Of a DNA stretch of 64,000 nt, positions 17,094 through 57,816 are shown piece by piece. Both the position numbers and the translations under genes were made by a program. Position 1 is the stretch's first letter. The number at the start of each line of letters is the position of its first letter. The notes under the pieces are model-generated. The model was not told the origin of the DNA. It searched no databases and saw only the letters and a list, made by a program, of their open reading frames with translations. Source of the stretch: Gemmatimonadales bacterium (GTDB lineage Bacteria > Gemmatimonadota > Gemmatimonadetes > Gemmatimonadales > GWC2-71-9); NCBI GenBank assembly GCA_011772755.1, contig WVYX01000293.1, positions 58,949-122,948 of the forward strand, read 5' to 3'.

Positions 17094-17139
17094 GATCGGC
17101 GACTGTCGATCTACGATTGCTGATCTGCAATCGCCGATC
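17094..17139. repeat. Four GATC sites at exact 14-nt spacing forming an imperfect hairpin
   Basis: GATC at 17094, 17108, 17122 and 17136; arms 17093-17111 and 17122-17139 match 15/18; divergent intergenic region. Confidence 0.8.
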
Positions 17140-17288
17140 TCCAGCCCACCCCAGCCGTCTCTCGAACCCCGGCGCACTATATGGAAGGTCCGGGCGGCTG
17201 GAGCCGCCTTCCACCGCCCTGGACCGGCAGCTGAGGTCTGCCGTCTCCACCAGTTCCGAGGGCTGGCTACGCCAGCCGGGAGGTTGCC

Positions 17289-17810
17289 ATGCGACACCCC
17301 TGCAAGCCCAGCGGGCTTGCCTTTCTGCCCCTGATCGTTGCGTTAGTTACGATCACGGGCTGTCAGCCGCCGGACCCGGCGGCCGAACTCAAACCGATCA
17401 CCGACGCCTATGTCGAAGCGTGGAACAGCGGGAACCTAGACGGCCTGGACGCCATCATGGATCCGCAGTTTGAGAGACGTGTCAGTCCCGCAAGCGGGAC
17501 AGGCGCTATCGGCATCGACGCCTTGAAAGAGGTCATCGCGGCGTTCCGGACCCAGTTTCCGGATTTCCGCGTGGTGCTCGACGAGGAGATCTTCGCCGCT
17601 GACCGAGCCATTGCTCGTTGGACGTTCACCGGAACCAACACCGGCCCAGGGGATTTCCCTCCCACCGGTCGGGCGGTGACGCTGTCGGGAACCTCAATAA
17701 TCCATCTGAGCGAAGGCCGGATGGTTACCGAGTGGGTTCAATCTGACAATCTCCACTTGTTCCAGCAGCTGGGCTTTACGCTCTCGCCACCGGAGGGAGA
17801 AACCGAGTAG
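17289..17810 (+). CDS. SnoaL-like/ester cyclase (NTF2 fold) lipoprotein
   Basis: LIVALVTITGC lipobox; AYVEAWNSGNLDGLDAIMDP... and GRMVTEWVQSD are typical of SnoaL-like proteins. Confidence 0.75.
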   Translation: MRHPCKPSGLAFLPLIVALVTITGCQPPDPAAELKPITDAYVEAWNSGNLDGLDAIMDPQFERRVSPASGTGAIGIDALKEVIAAFRTQFPDFRVVLDEEIFAADRAIARWTFTGTNTGPGDFPPTGRAVTLSGTSIIHLSEGRMVTEWVQSDNLHLFQQLGFTLSPPEGETE

Positions 17811-17846
17811 CGAGGGAAGCCCTTCCGAGCGTCACGAAGGACCATG

Positions 17847-17879
17847 GGAATCCCACGGCGCGGGTTGCTGTGGGATTCC
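17847..17879 (+). terminator. Stem-loop after the SnoaL-like gene
   Basis: GGAATCCCAC-13 nt-GTGGGATTCC, perfect 10-bp stem 37 nt past the stop; followed only by TT. Confidence 0.4.
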
Positions 17880-18242
17880 TTCACGTCGTGCCCTGTGGTG
17901 TCTCCCACTGCGTCGCGGTGCGATAGTCATCGGCTGATCATCTCCAGGGCTTCATGGTAGGAGATATCGAGGTCGGCGAGCAAGGCCCTGATGGCACCGG
18001 CAGCGGCGGCACTGGTGGTTGTGAGGCGGCCGAGTCACGTGCCCGCCGGGAAACCGACCAAACCCGCTTCAGTTTCACACTTGCGAGACGTACCCGCAAA
18101 GGCACATTGCCGACAATCCGTCGAACCGCCGATGGCCTCGACGGCCCACCGGCGCGGCGCAGCGTGACGACGTGAGCGGCCGGCTGCTGGCCCCACCGGT
18201 GACGGGGTCGTATTGTATAGTGTCCCCCCGAGCGAGTGTTGC

Positions 18243-21122
18243 ATGGCGGATGAACGCGAACGCCTCACGGCGGCGCTAGCCGAGCGGTATCGAGTCGAGC
18301 GCGAGCTGGGTCGCGGCGGGATGGCGACCGTCTACCTGGCCGAAGACCTGAAGCACCACCGCCACGTCGCTATCAAGGTTCTCAAGCCGGAGCTCGCCGC
18401 CGCGCTGGGTCCGGAGCGCTTCCTGCGCGAGATCGAGATCGCCGCCCGGCTCGATCACCCGCACATCCTGCCGCTCTACGACTCGGGCGAAGCGGCTACT
18501 TTCCTGTTCTACGTGATGCCCTACGTCGAGGGCGAGTCCTTGCGTGACCGTCTCGATCGCGAAAAGCAGCTTCCCCTGGACGAGGCATTGCAGACCGCGC
18601 GTGAAGTGGCGGACGCGCTGTCGTACGCGCACAGCCGCGACGTGATCCACCGGGACATCAAGCCCGAGAACATCATGCTGGCGGGCGGGCATGCGCGCGT
18701 CGCGGACTTTGGGATCGCGCGCGCCATCACGGCGGCCGGCGGGGCGCGGCTCACGGAAACCGGACTGGCGATCGGGACGCCGGCATACATGAGCCCTGAG
18801 CAGGCTGCGGGGAGCGCAGACCTGGACGGCCGCAGCGATCTCTATAGCCTCGGCTGCGTGCTGTACGAGATGCTGGCGGGCGAGCCGCCCTTCACCGGCC
18901 CGACTCTCGAGAACGTGATCCACCAGCACCTCACCGCGGAGCCCCCCAGCATCACCATCGTGAGGCCCGTGGTGCCCGCGTCGGTCGCTGCGGCGCTTAC
19001 GCGCGTGCTGGCGAAGACGCCGGCCGACCGGTTCAGTCCGGCCGCGCAGTTCGCCGAAGCGCTCGCAGTGAGCGCGGCGGCCGCATCCCACGCCGCGCCG
19101 GTGGCGGCCGCACCAGCACCTGTGGCACGGCACTGGACGCGCCGGCCCGGGGTCGTGGCCGCCCTAGCAATCGCCCTCGTGGTCGTCGGCTACCTGGCAC
19201 TCCGGGCCATTGGCGTGGGACAGACGGCCACGCTCATTTCCACCGGCGCTATAGAAGAGCGCGAGCGGCTCATCCTCGCCGACTTCGAGAACCGCACGTC
19301 GGATACGACACAGGGCGCGACGGTCACCGAGCTGATGCGGATCGGCTTGTCTCAGTCCCAGGCCGTGTCGGTCATGGATCCCCTCCAGCTCTCCCGCACG
19401 CTCGAGCTCATGCGGCGCGATCCGTCGGAGGGCGTGCCCAGCGCCGTCGCGCTCGAGGCGGCCGAGCGGGAGGGGATGAAGGGCGTGATCACGGGTGAGG
19501 TCGTCGCCGTGGGGAGCGGGCTCGCGATCTCGGCTCGGCTCATCACCACCGCAGGCGAGGTACTCGTTGCGGAGACCGAGAACGCCCGGAGCGCGGACGA
19601 TCTCGTCGCCGCCGTCGATCGGCTCTCGGACCGCCTCCGGGCGCGGTTCGGGGAATCGTTGCGGCTCATTCGCGGCAGCCAGCCGCTGGAGGCGGTCACA
19701 ACTGGATCGATGCGCGCGCTGCGCGTCTTCTCCCAAGGGCTCCAGGCGTGGAATCAGGGCGACAACGCCCGCGCGCTCCAGTTGCTCAAGGAGGCGATCG
19801 CCGAGGACTCGACGTTTGCCATGGCGTGGCGCAAGCTCGCGATCATTCTGTGGAACAACCAGGCGCAACGGTCGCTCGCGGTCGAGGCGGCGACGAGGGC
19901 GCACGAGCTGCGCGACCGGCTCACCGCCAGAGAGCGCTACCTCGTCACGGCGGCATACCACACCGTCGTAACCGGCAACCGCGATCAACAGATCAGCGCG
20001 TACCGGACCGTGCTCGACATGCACCCCAACGACGCGTACGCGCTCAACAACATCGGTGTCGTGTACAGTCAGCTGCGGGACCCGGAACGCTCCGCGGAGT
20101 ACTACGCGCGGGCGCTCGGCGTGGACTCGACCCTTCGGTTGCACTACAGCAATCTCTCGGGCGCGCTGGCGCGCCTTCGATTGTTCGACTCAGCGGCGGT
20201 GATCGCACGGCGCTTCGAGGAACGCTTCCCGGAGAACCCCGAGGTCAAGCTGGCGTACGTGTTGAACGCGGCATACCGCCAGGATTACGACAGCGCCCGC
20301 GTGCTGGTGCAGGCTCTGCTCGACGATCAGCGCGGCACGGTGTGGTGGGAGGCCATCGCCTACGAATGGTGGGGACATCTCGACGCCCTTAGCGGGCGCT
20401 TCGAGTCGGCCCAGCGGCTGTGGCGCCGGGCGTTCGGTCTCACCTCCGAGCAGGGGCTGCGGGGTCAGTACCTGCTGCGCATAGCCCGTCGCGCCATCCT
20501 CGAGCGCCTCTTGTTGAACGACTCGGTTCGTGCCCTCCGTCTCCTCGATGAAGCGCTGCGGCTCCATCCGCTTGAGGAGCTGGCGCCGCTCGACCGGCCG
20601 TACGGCCATCTCGCGGTCGCGTTCGCCGCCGCCGGGGAGACCGATCGCGCCCGAAGCCTGCTCGCCGAGTACGAAGCCACGCCCGAGGCGGACCGGAGCG
20701 AGAACGCCATTCTATGGACTCACGGCGCTCGGGGCGTGATCGCACTCGCTGAAGGCCGACCCGAGGAAGCGATCGAGCAGCTGCGGCAGTTCGATGACGG
20801 CAACGAGTGCTGGACCTGCGCGTACCCCTGGCTGGCGCGTGCCTACGACCGACTCGGCGTGGAAGACTCGGTGCGAGTGCTGTACGAACGGTTCGCCGAG
20901 ATTCCATCGGCCGACCTGTGGTACGACGGGGCGCACCTGGCCCACGGCTACATGCGGCTCGGCGAGCTGTACGAGAAACGGGGCGAGCGGGAGAAGGCCG
21001 CGCACTACTACGGCCGCTTCGTCAGCCTGTGGGAGCAGGCGGATCCGGCGCTGCAGGACTGGGTCCGCCAGGCCCGTGAGGCCCTCTCGCGCGTGACGGC
21101 CGAGGCGAGCGGCACCGACTGA
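18243..21122 (+). CDS. Ser/Thr protein kinase with TM helix and C-terminal TPR region
   Basis: Trimmed to ATG 18243; RYRVERELGRGGMATVYLAEDLKHHRHVAIK, HRDIKPEN, DFG, SPEQ motifs; VVAALAIALVVVGYLAL TM; TPR-like repeats. Confidence 0.9.
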   Translation: MADERERLTAALAERYRVERELGRGGMATVYLAEDLKHHRHVAIKVLKPELAAALGPERFLREIEIAARLDHPHILPLYDSGEAATFLFYVMPYVEGESLRDRLDREKQLPLDEALQTAREVADALSYAHSRDVIHRDIKPENIMLAGGHARVADFGIARAITAAGGARLTETGLAIGTPAYMSPEQAAGSADLDGRSDLYSLGCVLYEMLAGEPPFTGPTLENVIHQHLTAEPPSITIVRPVVPASVAAALTRVLAKTPADRFSPAAQFAEALAVSAAAASHAAPVAAAPAPVARHWTRRPGVVAALAIALVVVGYLALRAIGVGQTATLISTGAIEERERLILADFENRTSDTTQGATVTELMRIGLSQSQAVSVMDPLQLSRTLELMRRDPSEGVPSAVALEAAEREGMKGVITGEVVAVGSGLAISARLITTAGEVLVAETENARSADDLVAAVDRLSDRLRARFGESLRLIRGSQPLEAVTTGSMRALRVFSQGLQAWNQGDNARALQLLKEAIAEDSTFAMAWRKLAIILWNNQAQRSLAVEAATRAHELRDRLTARERYLVTAAYHTVVTGNRDQQISAYRTVLDMHPNDAYALNNIGVVYSQLRDPERSAEYYARALGVDSTLRLHYSNLSGALARLRLFDSAAVIARRFEERFPENPEVKLAYVLNAAYRQDYDSARVLVQALLDDQRGTVWWEAIAYEWWGHLDALSGRFESAQRLWRRAFGLTSEQGLRGQYLLRIARRAILERLLLNDSVRALRLLDEALRLHPLEELAPLDRPYGHLAVAFAAAGETDRARSLLAEYEATPEADRSENAILWTHGARGVIALAEGRPEEAIEQLRQFDDGNECWTCAYPWLARAYDRLGVEDSVRVLYERFAEIPSADLWYDGAHLAHGYMRLGELYEKRGEREKAAHYYGRFVSLWEQADPALQDWVRQAREALSRVTAEASGTD

Positions 21123-21175
21123 TCGTTAGCGCTTCAGCATCGGTCCAAACCACAGGCAGAGCCTCCGGAGCAATC

Positions 21176-21562
21176 ATGTCCCACGAGATGGGAACGTGCC
21201 GCGTCGATATCGAGATCGAGAACCCAATGCGCCCCGGGAAGTTGTGCGCGTTGAGGTCAGTGCTGGTGCACACCGGCGCCGAACTCTCCTGGATCCCCGC
21301 CGAGTTGCTCGAATCACTCGGCATCGAGCGCTACAGCCGGTGGCGGTTTCGACAAGCGGACGGTACGATCCTGGAGCGATGGACCGGATCCGCGTTTGTG
21401 CACCTTGGGGGGAAGCGGGCCACCGATGACGTGGTGTTCGGTGAGCCGGGCGACCTGGCAGTGTTGGGTGCGCGCTCGCTGGAAGGGCTCAATCTGCGCA
21501 TTGACCCGGTGAGCAGGCGACTGGTGGACGCCGGCCCGGCTCCGGCCGCCGCAACGGCATAG
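21176..21562 (+). CDS. Retropepsin-like (clan AA) aspartyl-protease-fold protein, with His at the catalytic-Asp position
   Basis: Matches the bacterial 'predicted aspartyl protease' pattern (…LV-D-[ST]-G-A…LLGxxxLExLGLxxDP) but reads LVHTGAE. Confidence 0.6.
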   Translation: MSHEMGTCRVDIEIENPMRPGKLCALRSVLVHTGAELSWIPAELLESLGIERYSRWRFRQADGTILERWTGSAFVHLGGKRATDDVVFGEPGDLAVLGARSLEGLNLRIDPVSRRLVDAGPAPAAATA

Positions 21563-21577
21563 GCGTGACGCGCTCCC

Positions 21578-21775
21578 TCACTGCGCGCCACTACCGACCC
21601 CATGTTCCCGCTCGATCATGACCTCTCGAATGATCACGCGGAGATTCCGGGGCGTCTCGGATGTCGGCACGACGAAATCCCGGTAGTACGTGCCGGTGCC
21701 ATCTTCGTAGGCATCCCCGATGAACTGTGCGTTGTCGATTCCAAAGGCGACGTGGTCCCCACGGAACGGCCCCAT
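21578..21775 (-). CDS. Hypothetical small protein (65 aa)
   Basis: ATG with GGGGA upstream; plausible composition; no family recognised. Confidence 0.3.
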   Translation of the reverse strand: MGPFRGDHVAFGIDNAQFIGDAYEDGTGTYYRDFVVPTSETPRNLRVIIREVMIEREHGVGSGAQ

Positions 21776-21869
21776 CCGATCCCCGGCGGTGGACCGTGGA
21801 GTGACGGAGACCCGGAAGCGCCGATTCGCCCGCCACGTTTGGAGTTATGTCGCTCTAGAGGCGTCGAGC

Positions 21870-22763: not shown

Positions 22764-23006
22764 TGTTCTTTACCTCGCTCAGAGTCATCTACAACGCGCA
22801 CAGCGCTGGCTGCGGAACTGGCGCAAGCATTCAGATAGAGGGCGTCACGCCGGCGCCGGGCGTCGAGGCCATCGGCAGGCCGGACCAACCCGATAAAGAT
22901 GCTCGGATTACCGTAGGGTGCAAGGGGCGGGCGCTATTCCTTCATAGCAGCGGGCAGAACAACAGAATCCCGTCGCAGGGCAACAAGCCTCGATCTGTCC
23001 TTTCCC

Positions 23007-23036
23007 TTGACCCAACCCCACTCATATCGGTAGTCT
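23007..23036 (+). promoter_or_regulatory. Candidate sigma70-type promoter of the padR-permease pair
   Basis: TTGACC (23007-12), 18 nt, TAGTCT (23031-36); AT-rich imperfect palindromes follow (TATCGATA at 23056-63). Confidence 0.25.
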
Positions 23037-23072
23037 ATGCGAACGACATATAGATTATCGATAGGAATCGCC

Positions 23073-23405
23073 ATGGGCACCAGCCAGACCGATCTCGTCC
23101 GCGGTACCCTCGATATGCTCATATTGAAGACACTCTCCCTCCAACCGATGCACGGGTTGGGGATCTCGCGTCGCATGGCGCAGATCACGGACGGGGCGTT
23201 CAAGGTCAAACCCGGTTCGTTGTTCCCGGCGCTCCACCGCCTCGAACAGGAAGGGTGGATCGTAGGCGTGTGGGGCGAGTCGGAGAACAACCGGCGCGCC
23301 AAATATTACAAGCTGACGGCCTCAGGTCGTCGCCGGCTCGGGGAAGAGACGCGCAACTGGATGCAGGCGCTCACGGCGATAACCCGAATCCTCGAAACCA
23401 CCTAG
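23073..23405 (+). CDS. PadR family transcriptional regulator
   Basis: Trimmed to ATG 23073; LVRGTLDMLILKTLSLQPMHGLGI...GSLFPALHRLEQEGWI...YYKLT is the canonical PadR winged helix. Confidence 0.9.
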   Translation: MGTSQTDLVRGTLDMLILKTLSLQPMHGLGISRRMAQITDGAFKVKPGSLFPALHRLEQEGWIVGVWGESENNRRAKYYKLTASGRRRLGEETRNWMQALTAITRILETT

Positions 23406-23414
23406 GGGAAGGGC

Positions 23415-26298: not shown

Positions 26299-27093
26299 GT
26301 GTGGACGGATTGTGGGAACGTGAGTAACGAGTGCAAACAGGCAGTGGAGCTTCTCTCCGGGGCGCGGCGGGTGGTTGCCTTGACCGGCGCCGGGATGTCG
26401 CAGGAATCTGGCGTCCCTACCTTCCGGGATGCGCAAACGGGTCTGTGGGAGCGCTACGACCCCACTGAGCTGGCCACCGCGGCGGCCTTCCAGCAGAACC
26501 CGGCCCGGGTGTTCGGCTGGTACCTGTGGCGCTGGCGACTGGTTCAAAGGGTCAGCCCCCACGCCGGACACTACGCGCTGGTAGCGCTGGTCAGGGGGTT
26601 CGACGAGCTGGTGGTGGTGACGCAGAACGTGGACGGACTGCATCGACGCGCGGGTAGCCCCGACGTCCTTGAGCTGCACGGCTCCATCGACGCGTTTCGC
26701 TGCTTCGACCAGGGACATCCGTACGACCCCGCCGGCCTGGAATCACTGGAGCTACCTGAGAGCGGTGAGGTCCAGCCTCCCGAGTGCCGGGTGTGCGGCA
26801 GCCCTGTCCGGCCCGGCGTCGTGTGGTACGGGGAATTCCTGCCTCAGGATGCCCTGGAGCGTGCCTGCCGGGTAGTCGCTGAATGCGATGCGCTCCTGGT
26901 CATCGGCACGTCGGCCCTGGTCTATCCCGCCGCCGATCTGCCCAACCTGGGCCTCGCCGGCGGGGCCAGCGTCATCGAGATCAACCCGGAGAGCACCCCC
27001 CTCACGCCCCGGGTTCATCTCTGGTGGCCTGAATCGGCCGGGGCAGCGCTTCCCGCCCTCTCCGCGGCCCTGGGCCAGCCTGTGGCGCCGTAA
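26299..27093 (+). CDS. cobB: NAD-dependent protein deacylase (Sir2/CobB family)
   Basis: ALTGAGMSQESGVPTFRD, TQNVDGLH, CxxC...CxxC zinc ribbon, GTS...YP; start uncertain (GTG 26299 or 26320). Confidence 0.85.
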   Translation: MWTDCGNVSNECKQAVELLSGARRVVALTGAGMSQESGVPTFRDAQTGLWERYDPTELATAAAFQQNPARVFGWYLWRWRLVQRVSPHAGHYALVALVRGFDELVVVTQNVDGLHRRAGSPDVLELHGSIDAFRCFDQGHPYDPAGLESLELPESGEVQPPECRVCGSPVRPGVVWYGEFLPQDALERACRVVAECDALLVIGTSALVYPAADLPNLGLAGGASVIEINPESTPLTPRVHLWWPESAGAALPALSAALGQPVAP

Positions 27094-28524: not shown

Positions 28525-28527
28525 CGT

Positions 28528-28703
28528 GGGCGGACCGGCGGGTCGGCGGGTCGGCGGACCGGCGGATCGGCGGTCCGGAGGTCTCGGCGGACTCCGTGGC
28601 CTTGAGGTGTGAGGTTCGAGGTTCGAGGTGCGAGGTGATGGAGGGGAGCACCGTTGCCTCCCTGCGGCCCTCGAACCTCAAACCCCGGACCTCGTACCTC
28701 GTA
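28528..28703. repeat. Octamer array (GGCGGNYC x ~8, 28528-28595) followed by a heptamer-unit inverted repeat (NNGAGGT x5; 28602-28637 / 28668-28703)
   Basis: Read directly; starts 4 nt after the pyk stop. Confidence 0.85.
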
Positions 28704-30926: not shown

Positions 30927-31009
30927 GGGCGGTCCGGCGGTTCGGCGGTCCGGCGGTCGGAAGCACGCCGTCCAGTGCGACCGCCTGTCCGCCTGTCCGT
31001 CCGTCCGCC
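30927..31009. repeat. GGCGGTYC octamer arm (30927-60) with an imperfect complementary arm (30979-31009)
   Basis: Same octamer family as 28528-28595; starts 2 nt after the stop, ends 11 nt before the next start. Confidence 0.8.
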
Positions 31010-35175: not shown

Positions 35176-35254
35176 TCTGTGGTTGTGTGGTTGGTGGTCG
35201 CGTCCGCCCATTGGAGACCACCGCCAGACGATGGCCCAACCACTCACCACAGAC
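35176..35254 (+). terminator. Long imperfect repeat-built hairpin after trkH
   Basis: GTCTGTGGTTGTGTGGTTGGTGGTC ... CCAACCACTCACCACAGAC; shares the 16-nt core TGTGGTGAGTGGTTGG with 54094-54222. Confidence 0.5.
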
Positions 35255-35273: not shown

Positions 35274-35310
35274 TTGCCGTCATGCCGTCATGCCGTGTTG
35301 CCGTGATGCA
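35274..35310. repeat. TGCCGTSW octamer tandem array (x4-5)
   Basis: TTGCCGTCA TGCCGTCA TGCCGTGT TGCCGTGA TGC; same family as 52746-52844. Confidence 0.8.
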
Positions 35311-35383: not shown

Positions 35384-35480
35384 GCCCCAGGTCCGGGGGG
35401 CGCGTGCGCGCGAACCGCGTCAGGACCGTGAAGGTAGCAGCGCTAAGCGATGACACGCGTCGCTTCGGGTAGCCTGGGGC
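35384..35480 (+). ncRNA. ffs: Small (4.5S-type) signal recognition particle RNA
   Basis: GTCAGGACCGTGAAGGTAGCAGCGCTAAGCGATGAC matches conserved domain IV of E. coli 4.5S (GUCAGGUCCGGAAGGAAGCAGCCAAGGCAGAUGAC, from memory); terminal stem GCCCCAGG/CCTGGGGC then GATTTT; sits just upstream of dnaX as in the B. subtilis scr-dnaX-yaaK-recR arrangement; ends approximate. Confidence 0.8.
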
Positions 35481-35496
35481 GATTTTCGAGTCTCCT

Positions 35497-43466: not shown

Positions 43467-43474
43467 GACCGCAA

Positions 43475-43504
43475 GGGGAGGTGGGGGAGGAGGGGCAGTG
43501 GGGG
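43475..43504 (+). repeat. Canonical G-quadruplex motif (G4-5 x4, 4-nt loops) of the GGGGAGGTGGGGGAG family
   Basis: GGGGaggtGGGGGaggaGGGGcagtGGGGG, 9 nt after the dnaJ stop. Confidence 0.85.
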
Positions 43505-43550
43505 CAGACAGGATGCCCGGCAGGCTCCTGATCGCGCTCAGCTTCACTCG

Positions 43551-45974: not shown

Positions 45975-46068
45975 TACTGACCCCTGTGAGTCCCAGGGCG
46001 AAACGTCGGTTGGGCTCGTCGGCACGTCAAGAGCGAACTGGCGAGGCTGCTGCAGCGGGCAACTAGCC

Positions 46069-46212
46069 GTTCGCAATTCGCAATTCGTCTGGGGAAACGC
46101 GTCCACGAGCCAGTCCAATTGCTGAGCGTCGAGCCCCTCCGCTGAGGCTCAAACTCCTGGCGAAGGTGTTGGAGACGTTTGAGCCTCACGAATGGCGAAT
46201 TGCAAATTGCGA
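46069..46212. repeat. Nested inverted repeats: outer GCAATTC-heptamer arms, inner perfect 11-bp IR
   Basis: TCGCAATTCGCAATTCG (46071-87) vs CGAATTGCAAATTGCGA (46196-212), 16/17; inner GAGGCTCAAAC (46144-54) / GTTTGAGCCTC (46177-87). Confidence 0.85.
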
Positions 46213-46356
46213 GCTGCTATGTGGCGGCTCGCCGCGGAGCGCTCCTCTCTCGCCGTATCGCCGCGGAGCCGTAGATTTCCCTACAGCATCCGTTCTGTCC
46301 ACTCCGTCCGACTATCCGAATTGTCGATTGGACGCTGACCCGAGGGAGCTACTACG

Positions 46357-46773: not shown

Positions 46774-46793
46774 GGCCTGGTCAGCGAGCGTGC

Positions 46794-48698: not shown

Positions 48699-49678
48699 GG
48701 GGCAGGTGGGGCAGCGGGGGCAAAAGGGGTAGGAGATCTCCCACTCGGCTTGCTCTGCCCCATCTGCCACTCCTCCCCCTCCTCCTGGCGGCTGGTGCGT
48801 GTGGCAGGGGCGATGACACCCTCACCGTAGCCTCCAAGAACTTCACCGAATCAGTGCTCCTCGGCGAAATCGTGGCACAGCAGCTCGAGCGTCATGGGTT
48901 CCACGTGGATCGTCGGCTCAACTTGGGTGGGACGTTCATCTGCCACGAGGCGATGAAGGCGGGACAGGTCGACGTCTACGTCGAGTACACGGGCACGGCA
49001 CACTCGGCGATCTTGGGACTCCCCACCGTCCGTGATCCAGCCAGAGTCCGTCAGGAGGTGGACAGCATCTATCGCGAACGGTGGGGCCTCGTATGGACCG
49101 CGCCCCTGGGCTTCAACAACACGTTTGCCATGCTGGTCCGCCGTGAGGATGCCCGGCGGCTTGGCATCTCGACCTTGTCAGGTGCCGTGCCTCACGCCTC
49201 CGACTGGCGGCCAGGCTTCGGCTACGAGTTCATGCAGCGGGAAGACGGGTATCGTGGGCTGGTGGACACCTATGGGTTCAGCTTCCCGATGCAGCCGGCC
49301 GTGATGGACCTGGGGTTGACCTATCGGGCGCTTGCCGAAGGCCAAGTGGACATCATTGCCGGCAACTCCACCGATGGGCAGATCCAGGCCCTCGAGCTGG
49401 TCCACCTGAGGGACGACAAAGAGTACTTCCCGCCGTACGAAGCCGCACCGGTCGTTCGGTCCCAGGTGCTCACCGCCCGTCCGCAGGTTGGCGCAGCCCT
49501 TGCCGCGCTTGGCGGGACGATTGACCAGGAGACTATGCGACGGCTCAATCGCCTGGTCGATGTGGATCGAAGAGACGTGAAGGAGGTGGCGAGAGAGTTT
49601 CTCGATGGCCTGGGGCATCGGGGACGGGGAGAGGAGGAGGAGATGGGGGAGGTGGGGGAGGGGAGGGTTCGACGCTGA
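48695..49678 (+). CDS. Glycine betaine/choline-type substrate-binding lipoprotein (OpuCC/OsmX-like)
   Basis: GTGA start/stop overlap; LLLAAGAC lipobox; NFTESVLLGEI...YVEYTGT; both ends of the CDS are repeat-derived. Confidence 0.8.
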   Translation: MRGRWGSGGKRGRRSPTRLALPHLPLLPLLLAAGACGRGDDTLTVASKNFTESVLLGEIVAQQLERHGFHVDRRLNLGGTFICHEAMKAGQVDVYVEYTGTAHSAILGLPTVRDPARVRQEVDSIYRERWGLVWTAPLGFNNTFAMLVRREDARRLGISTLSGAVPHASDWRPGFGYEFMQREDGYRGLVDTYGFSFPMQPAVMDLGLTYRALAEGQVDIIAGNSTDGQIQALELVHLRDDKEYFPPYEAAPVVRSQVLTARPQVGAALAALGGTIDQETMRRLNRLVDVDRRDVKEVAREFLDGLGHRGRGEEEEMGEVGEGRVRR

Positions 49679-49717
49679 CTCCCCTCACTCCCCTCCCCCA
49701 CCTCCCCCATCTCCTCC
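49636..49717. repeat. Perfect 30-bp inverted repeat (G-rich / C-rich arms), 22-nt spacer
   Basis: 49636-65 is the exact reverse complement of 49688-717 (checked base by base); lies between convergent genes, with the left arm inside the SBP CDS. Confidence 0.95.
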
Positions 49718-49724
49718 CCTAATC

Positions 49725-51130: not shown

Positions 51131-51141
51131 CGGAGCAACTG

Positions 51142-51162
51142 GCAATTCGCAATTCGCAATTA
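51142..51162. repeat. GCAATTC heptamer x3
   Basis: GCAATTCGCAATTCGCAATTA, 12 nt upstream of the hydrolase start; same family as 46071-46212. Confidence 0.85.
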
Positions 51163-51214
51163 GCGGTTCGGAGACAAGCATGCGGCGCGGTCCCGAACTG
51201 CCAAGTGTAAACTG

Positions 51215-51583: not shown

Positions 51584-51592
51584 CGCGGTCTC

Positions 51593-52753
51593 CTAATTGA
51601 TCACACCGCCACCCAGGAGGCGGGCGCCGTCGTACAGCGCCCCCGACTGGCCCGGGGTTATAGCGCGCACCGGTTCCGTCAGTTCGAGGGTCAGGTGACC
51701 GGTTCCATTGGCCGACTGGACGCGCGCCGGTGCCGCCTTGGCCCGGTGACGGACCTGCACCTGACACGCGTCGCCGGCCCCCAGAGGCTCGCCGAGCCAG
51801 TTGATCTCTTCTAGCACCACCTGGTGCCGAAACAGCTGGTCACCGGTGCCCACCACGACGGTCCGGCTTCGCGGCTCGATGGCGACCACGTATAGCGGCT
51901 CAGGAGAGCCGCCAGGGAGCCCTCGGCGCTGTCCCACGGTGTACCGGGCATACCCCCCGTGCTCGCCGATCACTTCGCCGGATGTGGCCCGAATGGGTCC
52001 CGGCGAAAGGGCCGGCGAGTCGGCTGGTAAGTATTTCGCCAGCACGGCGGCATAATCACCGTCCGGTACGAAACAGATCTCCACGGATTCCTGTTTCTCG
52101 GCTGTAACCAAGCCGAGGCGCCGCGCGATGCTGCGGGTCTCGTCCTTGGTCTTGGTGCCCACCGGCGTGAGCATCCGTGCCACCACACGCCGGTCGATGC
52201 CCCATAGAAAATACGACTGATCCTTGGCAGAGTCTCTGCCTCGGAACAGGGCGCCGTCACGAGTGATGGCGTAGTGACCGGTGGCGATGTAGTCGCAATC
52301 CATGGCGTCAGCATGCGCCAGGAGGTCTTTGAACTTGGTGAACGAGTTGCACCGGACACACGGGATGGGCGTGCGGCCGCGGGCGTATTCCGAGACGAAG
52401 TTCTCGATCACGTCAGACCGGAATCGGTCTTCGAGATTCAGGACGTAGTGGGGGATTCCCAGACGCGCTGCCACAGTTGCGGCGTCCCTGATGGAATCCA
52501 ACGAACAGCAGGGACGGTCCGGAACGGTATCGCCGTAGCAGAACAGCTTCATAGTCGCGCCGATGACATCGCGGCCTTCCTCAACCAGCAACGCAGCCGC
52601 CACTGAACTGTCGACACCGCCGGACATGGCGACCAACACGCGCCCCGTGCTCACGATGCTACCTTGAGACGCAGGAGCGGCAGCCGCAGCCCCGCCCAAC
52701 CGCGGCGGAAGGGGCGGCAGGGAACTTGAGACGGCAGCGCAGCACGACGGCAT
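51593..52753 (-). CDS. mnmA: tRNA 2-thiouridine(34) synthase MnmA
   Basis: [14 protein letters not shown]-loop, CC...D, RCN; ATG 52753 lies inside an octamer repeat, so GTG 52654 ([13 protein letters not shown]) is a plausible true start. Confidence 0.88.
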
Positions 52754-52844
52754 GACGGCATTCGCGTGGCTATCCCGTTGCCCGGTCCTGCCGTCCTGCC
52801 GTGGTCCTGTCAAGCTGTTGTGCCGTTGTCCCGTCAATGCCGTA
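52746..52844. repeat. GACGGCAT x2 plus complementary TGCCGTNN octamer units
   Basis: GACGGCATGACGGCAT (52746-61); CTGCCGTC CTGCCGTG ... TGCCGTTG TCCCGTCA ATGCCGTA to 52844. Confidence 0.8.
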
Positions 52845-52854
52845 GGCTCCCTTG

Positions 52855-54048
52855 TCATCGCCCCTCGAGCGCCGCGCTCAGCTTCCGCACCCGCTCCACC
52901 GCGTGCGGCATCACTTCGACGACCCGGGCCACGTCGTCCAGGGTGTTGTCCTTCGAGAAGGAGAACCGGACCGAGGCGGCCGCCAGCTCGGGCGGCAACC
53001 CCATGGCGGTGAGGACATGGGACGGTATTGCGCTGCCCGTGTCGCAGGCCGCACCAGACGAGCAGGCGATGCCGGCGAGGTCGAGCTGCATGAGCAGGGT
53101 CTCGCTGTTGGCCCCCGGGATCGAAATGTTGCTGACGTGCGGGGCCCGGGTCCCACCGGCGCCGTTGACCTGGGCATCCCCTACTTCTGCCAGGAGCCGA
53201 CGCTCCAGCTCGTCGCGCAACTGCCGGGTGGTCACCGCCGTCGCGTCGAGTTCCGCTGCGGCAAGCTGCGCGGCCGCCGCGAGTCCGATGGCACCGGGGA
53301 CGTTTTCGGTGCCTGGCCTGATCCCCAACTCTTGGCCGCCTCCGTGGAGCAGCGGCTCGAGCATCTGCCTGCTGCGGGCGATGAGGGCTCCGATGCCTTT
53401 CGGGGCGCCCATCTTGTGGCCCGATAGACAAAGCAGCGAGATGGGCTGGTCGGCGATGGAGCACGGCACCTTGCCGAGGGCTTGCACCGCGTCGGTGTGA
53501 AACGGCGTATTCGCCGCCGCCGCCCGGCGAGCCAGTTCCGGGATGTCCTGCACGATGCCCACTTCGTTGTTGACCCACATGACACTGAGGAGTGCCACGC
53601 CCTGCTCCAGCGCTGCGCCGACGGCGTCCAGGTCTACCTGACCGGTGTCCCCGACCGGGAGGATGATGGCTTCTCCACCCAGCCGTTCGACTGCCTTGGC
53701 TGACGCCAGCACCGCCTTGTGCTCGATGGCGCTGACCGCCACCGCAAACGGCCGGCCTGCGGAACGGGCTGCCAGCGCCGTGCCAAGCACGGCGAGGTTG
53801 TCCGCCTCGGTGCCTCCGGAGGTGAACAGCACGTCGCCCGGCTCGACGCCGATGACCTCGGCGATGCGTCGCCGAGCCTGTTCGACCGCCTCGCGGGCGG
53901 CCCGGCCCAGCCGGTGCGTGGAGCTGGGGTTCCCGAAGTTCCCCTCGCTGAGGAACGGCTCCATCGCTTCACGGACTTCCCTGCGGACCGGGGTCGTTGC
54001 GGCGCTGTCGAGATAGACGACTCGCTGAGCGGTTGGCGGCGTGTTCAT
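52855..54048 (-). CDS. Cysteine desulfurase (NifS/IscS class)
   Basis: [29 protein letters not shown] (PLP Lys), SSGAAC active-site loop. Confidence 0.9.
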
Positions 54049-54093
54049 GGGCGGGTTGTAAGGTAGGAACGCAAAGCTCTTGGGGAAAGGCCG

Positions 54094-54222
54094 GTGGGAT
54101 GTGGTGAGTGGTTGGCGGTCAGTGGTCGGTTGTCTTGGCAGTCTTGGACCACCGCTCCTGCCAACGGGATCGCTGGCCGATTGGCAACGACCTCAGACCA
54201 CCAACCACTCACCACATCCCAC
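54094..54222. repeat. 27-bp inverted repeat (26/27) with a 75-nt structured spacer
   Basis: GTGGGATGTGGTGAGTGGTTGGCGGTC (54094-120) vs GACCACCAACCACTCACCACATCCCAC (54196-222); inner TTGGCAG/CTGCCAA. Confidence 0.9.
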
Positions 54223-54252
54223 TGACCACGTCCCACACACCATTCAACCACG

Positions 54253-54981
54253 CTACATCGACACCACGCCCATCGTCACGACATCGTCCACTCGCACTGT
54301 CTCATACGTCATGTACGGCTCGCCGTAGCTCGTGCGGATCAGGCTTCCGTAGTGGGCGTTCTGCGTGCGGATGAGGTCGTACAGGTCCTGACCCGTGGGG
54401 AAGATCTCGCCGGCGGTCTTCACTCCGTCAAACTGTGAGCGGTAGCACCGGACCGCCTCCAGCTTGGCGTCGAACTCCGCCGAGATATCCACGACGAACG
54501 TTGGCTTGACAGGATCCTCGCGATAGGCGAGGGCGTAGAGGATCTTGCTCGGCCGATGCGCCTTGCCTCCCGCGGAGTAGTTGCGCAGCCCGGCCAGGAA
54601 ACAAGCGTCCCGGCAGAGTTCCGACGCGATACGATGGTCCGGATGCCGCCCGACGGGGAAGGGGAGAATGACGGTCCTCGGGCGCAATGAGCGGACCAAC
54701 TCCACCACGGTTCGCCGCATGTCATCGCTGTTATGGAGGTGACCGTCCGGCAGGCCGGCGTTCACCCGCTCAGTCACCCCCATTGCCCGCGCCGCCTCGG
54801 CAGCCTCTTCGGTCCGGGTGTGGGGTGTTCCTCGGGTCGCCGTCTCCCCACGAGTGAGGTCCACGATGCCCGTGACGTGTCCTTGCTTGGCGGCCTTGAT
54901 CAAGGTTCCACCACAGCTGAGCTCGACATCGTCGGGGTGAGCCCCGATGGCGAGGAGATCGACCGCCTTCGCCATGTGCAC
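54253..54981 (-). CDS. bshB1: PIG-L/LmbE family deacetylase, BshB1-like (bacillithiol biosynthesis)
   Basis: DLLAIGAHPDDVELSCGGTLIK...GIVDLTRGE...RG pattern. Confidence 0.7.
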   Translation of the reverse strand: MHMAKAVDLLAIGAHPDDVELSCGGTLIKAAKQGHVTGIVDLTRGETATRGTPHTRTEEAAEAARAMGVTERVNAGLPDGHLHNSDDMRRTVVELVRSLRPRTVILPFPVGRHPDHRIASELCRDACFLAGLRNYSAGGKAHRPSKILYALAYREDPVKPTFVVDISAEFDAKLEAVRCYRSQFDGVKTAGEIFPTGQDLYDLIRTQNAHYGSLIRTSYGEPYMTYETVRVDDVVTMGVVSM

Positions 54982-55025
54982 TTCCTCCTCGAGTCTGATG
55001 CGCTGTTGGCTGTGCGCCGTGCGTT

Positions 55026-55085
55026 GTGAAATGTGAAGGGTGAAACGTGAAGCGGCGGTTTCACATTTCGCGTTTCACACTTCAC
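55026..55085. repeat. GTGAA-unit hairpin (~28 pairs incl. 3 mismatches, 3 G-U; GGCG loop)
   Basis: GTGAAATGTGAAGGGTGAAACGTGAAGC / GTTTCACATTTCGCGTTTCACACTTCAC; 39 nt downstream of the last permease stop. Confidence 0.8.
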
Positions 55086-55123
55086 GATTCACAGCGCACC
55101 GCTCACCGCGCACCCAGACCGTG

Positions 55124-56422
55124 TCATTCGTACCGCAGCGCCTCCACCGGATCCAGCCGCGCTGCCCGGTTCGCCGGGAGGAGGCCGAATACCAGCCCGA
55201 TTCCGATCGAAATCCCGGTCGCCACCACGGCGCTCCAGATCGGCACGCCGGTGTCGAACCTGAGCACACCATTGAGTACCTGCCCTGCTCCGAGTCCAAC
55301 GGCTATCCCCACCGCGCCTCCGGCGAATGTGAGTGTCGCCGATTCAATCAAGAACTGCCAGAGGATCTCTCGTCGCGTAGCTCCCATCGCCTTGCGGACG
55401 CCGATCTCTCGAGTGCGGCTGGTCACGGATACCATCATGATGGCCATCACTCCGATACCGCCGACCATCAGCGCTACGCTCGAGAGCACGATCATTACCA
55501 GGAAGAACACACCCGTGAGCTGGTTGAACACGTTCAGAATCTGATCTGACGTGATCATGTCGAAGGTGTTCGGGTCTCCCGGTCTCAGACCCCGCATCCG
55601 GCGGAGCTGCAGCGTGGCCGCGTCCATGGCGGCATCGACGGTGACCCCGTCACGGGGCTTGACCAGGATGAGGAGGGATTGCGTCTCGTCGTACCGAAAC
55701 GCATGTCGCGCGGCCTCGAACGGGACGATGGCTGATATCTCCTGACCGGGGGGCTGGAAGATGTTTTCCGGCTTGCGATACAGCCCTATCACTCTGAACG
55801 CTCGTCCGCCCACCCGCATGACGCGGCGGAGGGGGTTCACTTGGCCGAATACCTTCTCCGCCGCTTCACGTTCGAGTATGACCACGCCGGTCCCGGTGCG
55901 TACCTCTGTGGGCGTGAAGGTCCGGCCCGAGATGATAGCGCCTCCCAGAACCTCCATGAAGCGCTCGTCCGCTCCGTAGACCACGGTGAGTTGGCTGCGC
56001 ACACCCTCGTATTCCAGGCGCTCGAACACACCCACCCAGATGGAGCTGTAGTGGATCTCGGGCAGCCGCTCGATGGCATCGGCTTCTCTCCGTCGGAGGA
56101 CGGGGCGGATGCGCACCTCCCGCGGCAGGGCGTCGGGGTTGAGGGGGGTGGATGAGAAGAACCGGAGGATCCGGAAGGTGGTGGGCCCAACCACCTCCAG
56201 CGTGTTGAAGATCTGGGACCGGATTCCGTGCACGATGGATGCCATGGCCATGACGGTGGCGACCCCGATGATGATGCCGAGGATCGTGAGGGCCGAGCGC
56301 AGCTTCTGCGATCGGATTGCGGCCACTGCCATGCCGGCGCCCTCGGCGAAGTTGACGAACTTCACTGCCCCGCCCCTGTCCCCTGCCACTCCCGGCGGTT
56401 CGGCGGACGGGCGGTCGAGCAT
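55124..56422 (-). CDS. MacB-like ABC permease 4 (FtsX + periplasmic core domain)
   Basis: KLRSALTILGIIIGVATV, C-terminal ...NRAARLDPVEALRYE; alternative GTG start at 56365. Confidence 0.88.
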   Translation of the reverse strand: MLDRPSAEPPGVAGDRGGAVKFVNFAEGAGMAVAAIRSQKLRSALTILGIIIGVATVMAMASIVHGIRSQIFNTLEVVGPTTFRILRFFSSTPLNPDALPREVRIRPVLRRREADAIERLPEIHYSSIWVGVFERLEYEGVRSQLTVVYGADERFMEVLGGAIISGRTFTPTEVRTGTGVVILEREAAEKVFGQVNPLRRVMRVGGRAFRVIGLYRKPENIFQPPGQEISAIVPFEAARHAFRYDETQSLLILVKPRDGVTVDAAMDAATLQLRRMRGLRPGDPNTFDMITSDQILNVFNQLTGVFFLVMIVLSSVALMVGGIGVMAIMMVSVTSRTREIGVRKAMGATRREILWQFLIESATLTFAGGAVGIAVGLGAGQVLNGVLRFDTGVPIWSAVVATGISIGIGLVFGLLPANRAARLDPVEALRYE

Positions 56423-56424
56423 TG

Positions 56425-56446
56425 CGCTTTCCGCTTCCCGCTTCCC
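56425..56446. repeat. GCTTYCC heptamer x3 in the intercistronic spacer
   Basis: GCTTTCC GCTTCCC GCTTCCC G. Confidence 0.7.
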
Positions 56447-56480
56447 GAAGCTCCGTGCAGCATGGGGATTCAGCTCCTCC

Positions 56481-57728
56481 TCACTGCTCGAAGCGAAGTG
56501 CTGCGATGGGGTCCAGCCGCGCCGCCCGAGATGCCGGGTAGACCCCGAAGATGAGCCCTATGCTTGCGCCGAGGCCGAGGGCCACCGAGACCGACCACCA
56601 TGTGATGCGTGCGGGTAGCGGAGAGACCACTGCCACCAGCTGCGCCAGCGCCCAGCCCGCCACGATCCCCAGCAGGCCTCCCAGCGTGGCCAGGGCCACG
56701 GATTCCGCCAAGAACTGTTGCTGGATGTCCGTCCGTCGGGCGCCCACTGATTTGCGGATGCCGATCTCCCGGGTGCGTTCGTGCACGCTCATCAGCATGA
56801 TGTTCATGATGACGATTCCGCCCACCACGATCCCAATCGCCACCACCGCCGGAACCACGGTGAAGATGATCCGGGTGAGGTTTTGCCAGAACGTGATCAA
56901 GCCTTCCGCCGTGTCCACGGTGAAGTCATTGGCCTGGCCCGGACGCAGCTGGCGGGCGATGCGCATGGCTTCCTCCGCCCGCAGCATGGCGTCAGCCACC
57001 TGCGCAGCCTCGGGCATCTTCACCGAGATCACGGTGGTCTGGCGGCGGCCGTACATCGCCTCGAAGAGGGTGAGCGGGAGCATCACGAACCCGTCCATGG
57101 ACTGTCCCAGGACGGTGCCCTTCTTCTCGACGATGCCCTTGACGGCCACCTGAAAGCCTCGGACGCGGATCCTCCTGCCGATGGCGGCGTCGAAGTTGTC
57201 GAACAGCTTGTCGGCTACGTCGAAGCCGAGGATGGCCACACGCCGCCGCTCGCGGACGTCGATTTCCGTCAGCGGCTCGCCAGCCGCGGTCTCGTAGTCC
57301 TGGACAACCTGATAGGGCGCCGTCACGCCCACCACGAGGACGTCCCCCACCGTGCGATTCCGCCAGCTGACGTCCGCCATCGGCGTCGGCCACCCGGACT
57401 GCAGGGCGATAGCTTCGGCGTCAGGGATAGCCCGCGAAACGTAGTCGGCTTCCTCAGGGCGGATGACGGGCCGACGCTGCAGCTCGCGCCACTCCTCGTC
57501 GTCGATCAGCCCAACGGAAATCGGTATGCGCCGGATCTGAAACGCGTTCCGGCCCACGATTGCCCCGGCGAGGTTCTCCCGCACGTAGGCGTTCATTCCC
57601 TGGATGATGGCCACCACGGCAACGAGGAAGGCTACCGAGACGATGATGCCGAGCAGGGTGAAGAACGACCGCAACTTGTGGTTGGCGATCTCTCGGAGGG
57701 CGAGACGGAGTCCTTCGAGAAGAGGCAT
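56481..57728 (-). CDS. MacB-like ABC permease 3
   Basis: HKLRSFFTLLGIIVSVA..., ...SRAARLDPIAALRFEQ. Confidence 0.88.
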   Translation of the reverse strand: MPLLEGLRLALREIANHKLRSFFTLLGIIVSVAFLVAVVAIIQGMNAYVRENLAGAIVGRNAFQIRRIPISVGLIDDEEWRELQRRPVIRPEEADYVSRAIPDAEAIALQSGWPTPMADVSWRNRTVGDVLVVGVTAPYQVVQDYETAAGEPLTEIDVRERRRVAILGFDVADKLFDNFDAAIGRRIRVRGFQVAVKGIVEKKGTVLGQSMDGFVMLPLTLFEAMYGRRQTTVISVKMPEAAQVADAMLRAEEAMRIARQLRPGQANDFTVDTAEGLITFWQNLTRIIFTVVPAVVAIGIVVGGIVIMNIMLMSVHERTREIGIRKSVGARRTDIQQQFLAESVALATLGGLLGIVAGWALAQLVAVVSPLPARITWWSVSVALGLGASIGLIFGVYPASRAARLDPIAALRFEQ

Positions 57729-57750
57729 GGAGGCAATCTACTCAAGGGGG

Positions 57751-57816
57751 AGGTGGGGGAGATGGGGGAGGTGATCAATCATGTCTTCTCTCCCTCCTCC
57801 CCCATCTCCCCCACCT
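57751..57816. repeat. Perfect 21-bp inverted repeat, 24-nt spacer, between two permease genes
   Basis: 57751-71 is the exact reverse complement of 57796-816 (checked); contains the GGGGAGGTGGGGGAG core. Confidence 0.95.

Follow-up and report, generated by a model that had tools for sequence, protein, structure and literature searches.

The 64,000-nucleotide (nt) stretch of contig WVYX01000293.1 from a soil bacterium of the order Gemmatimonadales analyzed here (hereafter, the window, with positions numbered from its first letter) carries in many of its intergenic gaps a tandem-arm hairpin, in which a purine/G-rich tandem array of 7–10 nt units is followed by a spacer and a complementary pyrimidine-rich array. 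It is likely that these elements belong to a class of small palindromic repeats that are non-coding, dispersed, and found across the Gemmatimonadales lineage, similar to the repetitive extragenic palindromic (REP) and short tandemly repeated repetitive (STRR) sequences of other bacteria, and evolving by slippage and copying. An initial annotation, made from the letters alone, had described STRR-like arrays in several families (F1–F8) with a common architecture, and this description was borne out by the following analysis.

The window was searched with Tandem Repeats Finder (TRF), by an inverted-repeat scan, and by direct reading of the sequence. TRF detected ~25 arrays with a period of 7–10 nt between 28.5 and 58 kb, and the longest inverted repeats of the whole window were tandem arrays and their complements. 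All arrays listed in the initial annotation were recovered at their positions, except that a GATC array (17094–17139) proved to be at chance level and to fall outside the class. True tandem-arm hairpins are found at eight loci, to which 57746–57816 is added as a second full F1 copy. The succession of tandem arm, spacer, and complementary arm, initially annotated as general, thus holds for the hairpin loci, but several arrays of the same families are unpaired (28529–28592, 35275–35309, 43475–43507, 48699–48729, 51134–51164, and 56425–56447), and an additional polymorphic F3-type array is located at 56378–56420. Arrays with a period of 7, 8, or 10 nt amounted to 15 in the window versus 1.28 ± 1.21 in 100 dinucleotide shuffles (~12-fold), or, at a score of at least 36, to 10 versus 0.24; nine arrays had a complementary partner within 250 nt, as compared with one in 100 shuffled windows. 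All window arrays lie outside Pfam-supported coding sequence. On a Pfam-curated gene map, 14 of the 20 intergenic gaps of at least 25 nt between 27 and 64 kb contain an element, versus 1 of 18 gaps between 1 and 27 kb, which is occupied by the weak GATC array (Fisher p = 5e-5). RNA folding of seven of the eight hairpin loci (46054–46229 being outside the set) gave dG values between −42.8 and −93.8 kcal/mol (z-scores, −2.2 to −10.1), and the three unpaired arrays that were folded (28525–28600, 43470–43550, and 56420–56480) showed no structure beyond that of shuffles (z ~0 to −1).

The iscS-like aminotransferase of the window had matches only in metagenome-assembled genomes (MAGs) of Gemmatimonadales, the best with 68% identity. 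A single detector, selecting TRF arrays with a period of 6–10 nt and at least 2.5 copies and then an ungapped complementary match within 250 nt, was applied to 80 related loci and the window (1.28 Mb). The 464 arrays detected were 3.9 times as dense in intergenic as in coding DNA by a rough gene map, and a complementary partner was found for 63% of intergenic arrays versus 14% of ‘coding’ arrays (p = 8e-28). Tandem-arm hairpins numbered 83, distributed over 43 of 82 Gemmatimonadales sequences, with a median arm of 25 nt, a median loop of 30 nt, and ~35 families of unit sequences; the period was 7 in 54 of them, 8 in 13, 9 in 8, and 10 in 7. In Gemmatirosa kalamazoonensis KBS708, a cultured strain with a PacBio-finished genome (PMC3974934), three 50-kb pieces of plasmid 1 gave 0, 11, and 9 matches, ~15 of the 20 being convincing by eye. 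In 200 kb from replicons of Ralstonia, Sinorhizobium, Deinococcus, and Thermus with a comparable GC content, the same detector found no tandem-arm hairpin. These counts indicate that the class is real, lineage-typical, and patchy along replicons, and they agree with the two expectations of the initial annotation that such arrays should recur outside the window and be enriched in intergenic DNA. Furthermore, the F5 16-mer CCAACCACTCACCACA matched 120 stretches when scanned against metagenomes; these were nearly all chance matches in unrelated contigs, and no further copies from the genome of the window were among them. The only one with the hairpin architecture (L200), in which (GGTGGTT)6 is followed by CCAACCAC units on a contig of 63% GC, shows that an F5-like family is present in at least one more uncultured genome.

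The elements share a polarity and a position. The 5′ arm is G-rich in 73 of the 80 skewed elements (p = 6e-15), with a composition of 46% G and 24% A and a median purine fraction of 0.72, and, the element being palindromic, this polarity holds on both DNA strands. No such arm bias was seen in ordinary non-tandem hairpins from this DNA (33 versus 41 intergenic and 109 versus 116 coding). In co-directional gaps, the element starts at a median of 6 nt past the upstream stop codon (interquartile range, 0–11.5), and most Gemmatirosa copies likewise lie no more than a few tens of nucleotides from a stop. Co-directional, convergent, and divergent gaps are occupied 51, 14, and 13 times, respectively, compared with 52.3, 14.0, and 11.6 expected from the background (p = 0.91). 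Sites consisting of a hairpin and a T-tract are at the shuffle level in the window (10 versus 8.9 and 6 versus 7.8); none coincides with a whole element, and one minor match (54116–54128) is inside an F5 element. The tails of the elements are G-rich or mixed by direct reading. Mismatches inside the arms, read in the sense orientation, comprise 27 G·U and 25 A·C pairs with no strand-specific wobble signature, and this equality means that RNA-level and DNA-level constraints are not separable by the mismatch test.

Comparison of nearly identical assemblies indicated that the arms evolve by slipped-strand mispairing, as replication slippage had been proposed in the initial annotation to contribute to the arrays. 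Over 8.3 kb with 99.88% identity, the only indel between the window and the related locus L001 is one 8-nt unit fewer in L001, in the array 28529–28592. Likewise, over 7.2 kb with 99.5–99.85% identity, the sole true indel between the window and contig JABAOC010016120.1 (GCA_012975005.1; L082) is 24 nt (three octamers) more in L082, in frame, in the array 56378–56420. This octamer array (− strand; 4316–4375 in L082) is placed at the very start of a MacB/FtsX open reading frame (ORF), where the 8-codon difference gives a variable N-terminal tail or 5′ leader. At a greater distance, between L067 and L075 (90% identity over 21 kb), orthologous hairpins vary by single units, in one arm or the other. 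L067 has, at two loci, a GATTSMA-family hairpin within GGGAGAC-family arms, where L075 has another inner hairpin or else a long palindrome of non-tandem sequence, and the alignment of the two breaks at these two loci only. The L075 palindrome (CTGTCATTCCGAGGGAGCGAAGCGACCGAGGAATCCC...GGGATTCCTCGCTTTGCTCGGAATGACAG) occupies the loop of the GGGAGAC-family hairpin at 9850–9935 (loop fold z −6.1) and looks like a separate REP-like family nested at the same site. Among long loops, 9 of 36 folded with z<−2, versus 2 of 36 control segments, so that nesting is common but not universal.

Evidence for copying between loci was obtained mainly from Gemmatirosa, in which an 89-nt element with three CGCAGAGGA units per arm occurs at no fewer than 40 and 39 places on two megaplasmids (at least 79 in total); none was found among the matches listed from 72,554 other plasmid records. 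Against an 89-nt query derived from the L088 copy, the copies on the second plasmid are 96.5–97.7% identical over 86 nt, and copies on different replicons are 96.5–98.9% identical over 86–88 nt, in both cases with the loop included. These near-identical copies rule out a purely local origin for the CGCAGAGGA family. Other Gemmatirosa copies have divergent loops, and three cases are compound or nested, with a second element in the loop of the first. No flanking direct duplication was seen at the Gemmatirosa copies, the flanks of which merely prolong the palindrome. In the window, where the families have 2–4 loci each, the resemblance among F2, F3, and F5 loci reaches past the units into flanks or loops, extending the links drawn initially: the two F5 hairpins (35176–35254 and 54089–54227) have a common 16-mer and part of the loop, the F2 hairpin (46054–46229) and the F2 array (51134–51164) are homologous in their flank, and the F3-type array (56378–56420) resembles the F3 hairpin including the start of its loop. 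The F6 array (35275–35309) is related to the 3′ arm of the F6 hairpin (52730–52844).

The junction between iscS and mnmA illustrates how an element resides in an operon. In most species, the two genes overlap by ATGA or GTGA, but in ~10 species a tandem-arm hairpin of 100–130 nt is placed exactly 3′ of the iscS TGA and is followed by a G-rich Shine–Dalgarno sequence and a new GTG or ATG start of mnmA; the window has the F6 hairpin (52730–52844) at this site. Four species have an unpaired G-rich octamer array at the junction, which is in frame with mnmA in both of those checked. Hairpin carriers are interleaved with non-carriers in the IscS tree, and species with a common sequence downstream in the junction have different unit variants (AACGCGG, AGT/AATGCGG, and ATTGCGG) in both arms. 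In L004, L003, L044, L035, L051, L025, and L073, a G-run (GGGGTGGGGGG, GGGCGGGGG, or GGGGAGGGG) lies a few nt past the 3′ arm, ahead of the new GTG/ATG start of mnmA. Judging from this arrangement, it looks as if a strong ribosome-binding site either arrived with the insertion or was selected afterwards.

Altogether, the class would be explained by a cycle in which the arms lengthen and shorten through slipped-strand mispairing, and whole elements or arms are copied between loci, preferably into existing hairpins and post-stop spacers. A hairpin-recognizing single-strand transposase, template switching, or gene conversion would be the candidate machinery. Such propagation of copies, or at least of arms, between loci and into existing loops is shown in part by the above comparisons. 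The copies would then last where they are harmless; those that are transcribed would fold, at the upstream cistron's 3′ end, into very stable stem-loops, which probably block 3′-to-5′ exonucleases or pause RNA polymerase. These might plausibly act as decay barriers or pause sites, but the transcript stem-loop would be a consequence, sometimes exploited, rather than the reason for the existence of the elements. The concentration after stop codons, the indifference to gap type, and the tolerance in an operon junction fit better with harmless persistence than with dedicated terminators.

Several observations weigh against copying between loci followed by harmless persistence. Insertions at the iscS–mnmA junction have no visible target-site duplication. 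In several MAGs, copies with the same unit within one genome often have unrelated loops; whole-element copying is therefore directly shown for Gemmatirosa only and suggested for the window families F2, F3, and F5. Sharing of units within genomes was not significant by permutation with either up to one mismatch or the exact dominant variant (p = 0.16 and 0.14, respectively), and reached p = 0.0017 only after post hoc pooling of the AGT and AAT variants, which is suggestive at most. As for a mobilizing enzyme, a tblastn search of 1.47 Mb of Gemmatimonadales DNA, sampled at ~20 kb per genome, with Escherichia coli RayT gave chance matches only (E≥3). Finally, the tight post-stop start (median, 6 nt) and the occupancy of 70% of gaps in the housekeeping region could reflect a selected RNA function.

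Such a function is central to the alternative that the hairpins are primarily selected RNA elements, acting as U-tract-independent terminators or attenuators or as 3′ stem-loops protecting the upstream mRNA, with the repetitive arms providing an easy way to a long stem. We consider this possible but rather unlikely. Besides the post-stop start and the 14 occupied gaps out of 20 in the housekeeping part, it is favored by the very stable RNA folds, by the element between convergent genes (49626–49718), and by the reuse of positions across many species with different units; since canonical terminators with a hairpin and a T-tract are at chance in the window, another 3′-end structure may also be needed. 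However, divergent gaps are occupied as often as co-directional and convergent ones, the element has been inserted between iscS and mnmA, which overlap in most relatives, its presence is patchy among close relatives, G·U mismatches on the sense strand do not exceed A·C ones, and unpaired arrays of the same families are found at the same kinds of site. Moreover, the hairpin in the iscS–mnmA junction leaves only ~20 nt with the Shine–Dalgarno sequence ahead of mnmA, and hence an efficient terminator there would silence mnmA. The U-tract-independent terminators suggested in the initial annotation are accordingly weakened by the lack of a T-tract, the equal use of gap types, and the insertion in this junction; mRNA stabilization, also suggested there, is a possible role. 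A purely in situ origin appears improbable. It assumes that 7–10-mers slip locally and that the complementary arm arises by local inverted duplication or quasi-palindrome correction, without transfer between loci, so that family resemblance reflects a shared slippage preference. The unit-number indels as the only indels between nearly identical assemblies, the many unit sequences (~35 families), the often unrelated loops of same-unit copies, the unpaired G-rich arrays at the iscS–mnmA junction, which look like proto-elements, and the dominance of period 7 (54 of 83), in line with the polymerase-slippage idea cited for Xanthomonas (PMC4692102), are all compatible with it. It fails to account for the 79 or more places of the Gemmatirosa element, near-identical across replicons with the loop included, for the likeness of window families in flank and loop, and for the same new family at two L067 loci since the split from L075; nor does local inverted duplication predict the strict polarity.

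The polarity itself has three candidate sources: a generative mechanism adding units to 3′ ends, avoidance of exposed C-rich RNA until the partner arm is made, and inheritance from a single ancestral family. The first of these can be extended to a speculative reading, to which we assign a low probability, that the polarity is the footprint of how the elements are made. A G/purine-rich array runs 5′ to 3′ towards the center on both strands, as in a head-to-head telomere fusion, and G-rich units might be attached over and over to both 3′ ends at a break or at a nick in a hairpin loop, through slippage synthesis by a repair polymerase or by an enzyme resembling reverse transcriptase, before the ends are joined. 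Unit addition at nicked hairpin loops would then account for new hairpins inside the loops of old ones. If true, the elements would be self-writing repair scars, a generative mechanism not known to have been described for bacterial repeats, which might also account for the Xanthomonas and cyanobacterial arrays. Action at the DNA level, as G-quadruplexes (G4), cruciforms, or protein-binding arrays with a nucleoid or regulatory role, as considered for the Xanthomonas GGGAATC repeats, is very unlikely. F1 (GGGGGAGGT), with runs of five G, may adopt a G4 structure, both DNA strands show the polarity symmetrically, and no strand-specific RNA signature was seen, but most units are incapable of G4 formation (AATGCGG, ATTGCGG, GTGAAAC, GCAATTC, and TGCCGTCA), ~35 unrelated units argue against one sequence-specific binding protein, and it is the complementarity of the arms, not their sequence, that is conserved across families. 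Lastly, the probability that the pattern is a product of chance or assembly is negligible. Short-read assembly is indeed disturbed by the hairpins: in L082, a 100-N scaffold gap (6478–6578) spans the F5 hairpin 54089–54227 and an NN with a 5-nt gap (2907–2908) lies beside the F1 hairpin 57746–57816, and a difference of one unit might in principle be due to misassembly. Nevertheless, chance is excluded by the shuffle controls, the other hairpins agree base for base between independent assemblies, and the architecture is abundant in the finished PacBio genome of a cultured strain (PMC3974934) as well as in dozens of MAGs from different studies. Gene callers are misled at these places in L082, the adjacent ORF being called with 423 aa instead of 410.

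The elements of the window are compiled in Table 1.

Table 1. Tandem-repeat elements in the 64,000-nt window, with neighboring genes and structural evidence (dG in kcal/mol)
Element	Position	Location	Evidence and remarks
F3 octamer array (GGCGGRYC)n, unpaired	28529–28592	directly 3′ of pyruvate kinase stop (28524)	TRF period 8, 5.6 copies; fold z −0.06; unit number variable
F4 tandem-arm hairpin (GAGGTKC)n / (CCTCGWA)n	28604–28703		TRF and inverted-repeat scan; RNA dG −61.6, z −6.9
F3 tandem-arm hairpin (GGCGGTYC)n / (CCGCCTGT)n	30928–31009		dG −52.6, z −3.1; 5-bp GGCGG/CCGCC helices with small internal loops between
F5 tandem-arm hairpin, TGTGGTTG / CCAACCAC units	35176–35254	27 nt 3′ of trkH stop	dG −42.8, z −3.8
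F6 octamer array (TGCCGTSW)n, unpaired	35275–35309	upstream of SRP RNA gene	TRF period 8, 4.4 copies
F1 nonamer array (GGGGAGGTG-like), unpaired	43475–43507	9 nt 3′ of dnaJ stop	fold z −1.0; resembles F1 arms
F2 hairpin (TTCGCAA)n / (TTGCGAA)n	46054–46229	divergent gap	108-nt loop with inner non-tandem hairpin; loop fold z −1.9
F1-like G-rich nonamer array, unpaired	48699–48729	junction of ABC permease gene and opuAC	TRF period 9, 2.7 copies
F1 tandem-arm hairpin, GGGGGAGGT units	49626–49718	between convergent opuAC and osmC-like genes	30 nt perfect complementarity; dG −80.6, z −5.9
F2 heptamer array (GCAATTC)n, unpaired	51134–51164	adjoins small ordinary hairpin	TRF 100% matches, 2.9 copies; fold z −2.0
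F6 tandem-arm hairpin (GACGGCAN)n / (CCTGCCGT)n as on + strand	52730–52844	between iscS-like stop (52855) and mnmA start (~52690)	dG −49.8, z −2.2
F5 tandem-arm hairpin, 40-nt arms	54089–54227	between PIG-L-family gene stop and iscS-like start	dG −93.8, z −10.1
F7 tandem-arm hairpin (GTGAAAN)n / (TTTCACN)n	55009–55109	14 nt 3′ of MacB/FtsX permease stop	dG −53.7, z −5.6
F3-type octamer array	56378–56420	first codons of MacB/FtsX ORF 55124–56422	GGCGG-type on + strand, CCGCC-type on sense strand of gene; unit number variable
F8 heptamer array (CGCTTCC)n, unpaired	56425–56447	between two MacB/FtsX genes	sense strand G-rich; TRF 93% matches, 3.3 copies; fold z 0.0
F1 tandem-arm hairpin	57746–57816	2 nt after MacB/FtsX stop (57819), filling 90-nt intercistronic gap	21 nt perfect complementarity; dG −50.8, z −5.2

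The F3 hairpin occupies a 94-nt gap from the stop of a BrkB-family gene (30925) to the start of an aminotransferase gene (31020), according to the gene calls from L001, and the mnmA gene next to the F6 hairpin was identified by Pfam. In an Rfam scan at gathering thresholds, the signal recognition particle (SRP) RNA was the sole match, leaving the elements without a known RNA family. This small bacterial SRP RNA gene (RF00169, 49.6 bits) is located at 35385–35482 (+ strand) between trkH and dnaX, directly downstream of the F5 hairpin and the F6 array. A riboswitch was ruled out by the lack of an Rfam match, and a clustered regularly interspaced short palindromic repeat (CRISPR) array by the lack of spacers of constant size. 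In the opuAC ORF, encoding a glycine betaine-binding protein, the final ~20 codons (49607–49678, + strand) are supplied by the F1 hairpin through its G-rich 5′ arm, with the stop codon in the loop; the Pfam OpuAC match stops at residue 304 of 327, indicating that the repeat rewrote or extended the C-terminus of the protein. Four paralogous genes of MacB/FtsX-type permeases are arranged in tandem at 55124–60296 (− strand). In the relatives, many repeat-bearing gaps also come after permease paralogues with ...(L)RYE-stop ends (TACGAATGA / TACGAGTAG), and part of the apparent ‘target’ similarity is therefore gene paralogy. A look-up of the PIG-L-family protein by identity gave no match.

The first 27 kb of the window, which is nearly repeat-free, has a lower GC content (0.55–0.64) and a lower third-position GC than positions 27001–64000, is 80% coding as compared with 91%, and contains numerous ORFs that Pfam does not match. 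This part may have been acquired recently, or the repeats may build up only in long-resident or highly expressed regions. A similar patchiness is seen in the three Gemmatirosa plasmid pieces, with 0, 11, and 9 matches per 50 kb. The GATC array in the first 27 kb comprises four sites spaced exactly 14 nt apart, located upstream of a SnoaL-like gene in a divergent gap. It was rejected as a member of the class, as four GATC sites within 50 nt occur in 34% of shuffles, a chance test of density and not of phasing, and as it has no complementary arm; shuffled windows contain on average 1.8 arrays with a period of 11–16 nt and a score of at least 40. The four sites could serve to bind a regulator or be connected with methylation.

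Heptamer arrays have been known since 1990, but their function and origin are not understood. The closest counterpart is in Xanthomonas, two genomes of which contain 183–186 GGGAATC arrays, with 70–75 convergent inverted pairs and 89–93% intergenic, as described by Rehm et al. in 2015 (PMC4692102). On average, these arrays are 28 nt after the upstream ORF, their positions are conserved and their lengths variable between species, and no function was found (PMC4692102). They contradict the statement in the initial annotation that no comparable hairpin-forming heptamer arrays were known from high-GC genomes. Both systems combine a high GC content with intergenic tandem heptamers (~4 units per Xanthomonas array) in inverted pairs with the G-rich arm first, far nearer the end of the upstream ORF than the next ORF, and at the same positions in related species with different length and sequence. 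By the features used for Xanthomonas and Nostoc, the Gemmatimonadales elements likewise are convergent paired arrays (G-rich 5′ arm in 73 of 80) and intergenic near the upstream 3′ end (median, 6 nt in co-directional gaps), but among the units inspected only F1 (GGGGGAGGT) matches the GGGNATC/GGGGAYT type capable of G4 (at least four tracts of at least three G), with AATGCGG, GTGAAAC, GCAATTC, and TGCCGTCA having no G3 tract. Whereas Xanthomonas has essentially one G4-capable unit family, Gemmatimonadales has dozens with periods of 7–10, most of them G4-incapable and several within a single 37-kb stretch; depletion from divergent gaps is seen in Xanthomonas and not in Gemmatimonadales, and nesting, replacement, and near-identical full-length copies are not reported there. 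Thus, the kind of repeat is already known, and the Gemmatimonadales repeats are novel in phylum, in the number of unit families, in the frequency in divergent gaps, and in nesting, replacement, and near-identical full copies. No description of such repeats in Gemmatimonadota was found in a search of the open-access literature.

Cyanobacterial STRR sequences, reportedly described by Mazel et al. in 1990, are also tandem heptanucleotides with several families per genome in intergenic regions, and some form hairpins between co-transcribed genes (hupS–hupL); roles in transcript stability or termination have been suggested for them and never proven. Canonical STRR units are CCCCAGT, TTGGTCA, and CAACAGT, from heterocystous cyanobacteria. 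The Gemmatimonadales elements are equally dispersed intergenic repeats with heptanucleotides prevailing (54 of 83), but differ in phylum, GC content, and unit sequences, none of the ~35 unit families matching a canonical one. Hairpin-forming STRRs are ‘not unusual’ in filamentous cyanobacteria (PMC2670836), and few of the G-rich arrays of Nostoc are paired (PMC4692102), as compared with 63% of intergenic arrays in Gemmatimonadales. REP sequences, bacterial interspersed mosaic elements (BIMEs), and REP doublets forming hairpins (REPINs) of enterobacteria and pseudomonads are similar as short intergenic palindromes at high copy, often between cistrons just past stops, that form genome-specific families and RNA stem-loops able to stabilize upstream mRNA. 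The Gemmatirosa element, with its 79 or more places on two replicons, is such a high-copy genome-specific palindrome. However, REP arms are neither tandem arrays of short units nor known to be purine-first, and REPs are tied to the REP-associated tyrosine transposase (RAYT), for which no candidate appeared among the Gemmatimonadales matches in the ~20 kb per genome sampled. Small dispersed repeats are said to have been found inserted into hairpins in Nostoc by Elhai et al. in 2008. These repeats and nested MITEs (miniature transposable elements with inverted repeats) are alike in that new elements occur in the loops of older palindromes and that close genomes differ in their presence; they differ in having non-tandem units of 21–27 nt, or terminal inverted repeats with target-site duplications, the latter not being seen at iscS–mnmA. 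MITEs also have a related autonomous insertion sequence; in the Gemmatimonadales elements, the tandem arms function like long inverted repeats. Intrinsic terminators, among them the U-tract-less ‘I-shaped’ type proposed for bacteria of high GC content, resemble the elements in having a GC-rich stem-loop a few nt past the stop, but the elements have stems 3–5 times longer than usual and are present in divergent gaps and conserved operon junctions; having no T-tract, they were rejected as canonical intrinsic terminators, which consist of a GC stem-loop and a U-tract.

The Gemmatimonadales elements thereby represent a third, independent, and much more diverse system of heptamer arrays. Since the unit families number in the dozens, explanations by G4 or a single binding protein can be discounted, which brings out the constant features: complementary arms, the purine-rich arm first, the start after a stop codon, nesting in loops, and change by whole units. 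In practical terms, the hairpins break short-read assemblies of an abundant soil phylum and artificially lengthen ORFs, as at the C-terminus of opuAC and the N-terminus of a MacB, and they are a source of hypervariable markers for strains. The elements are carried by cultured strains whose genomes are finished (Gemmatirosa and Gemmatimonas), which makes experiments on them feasible.

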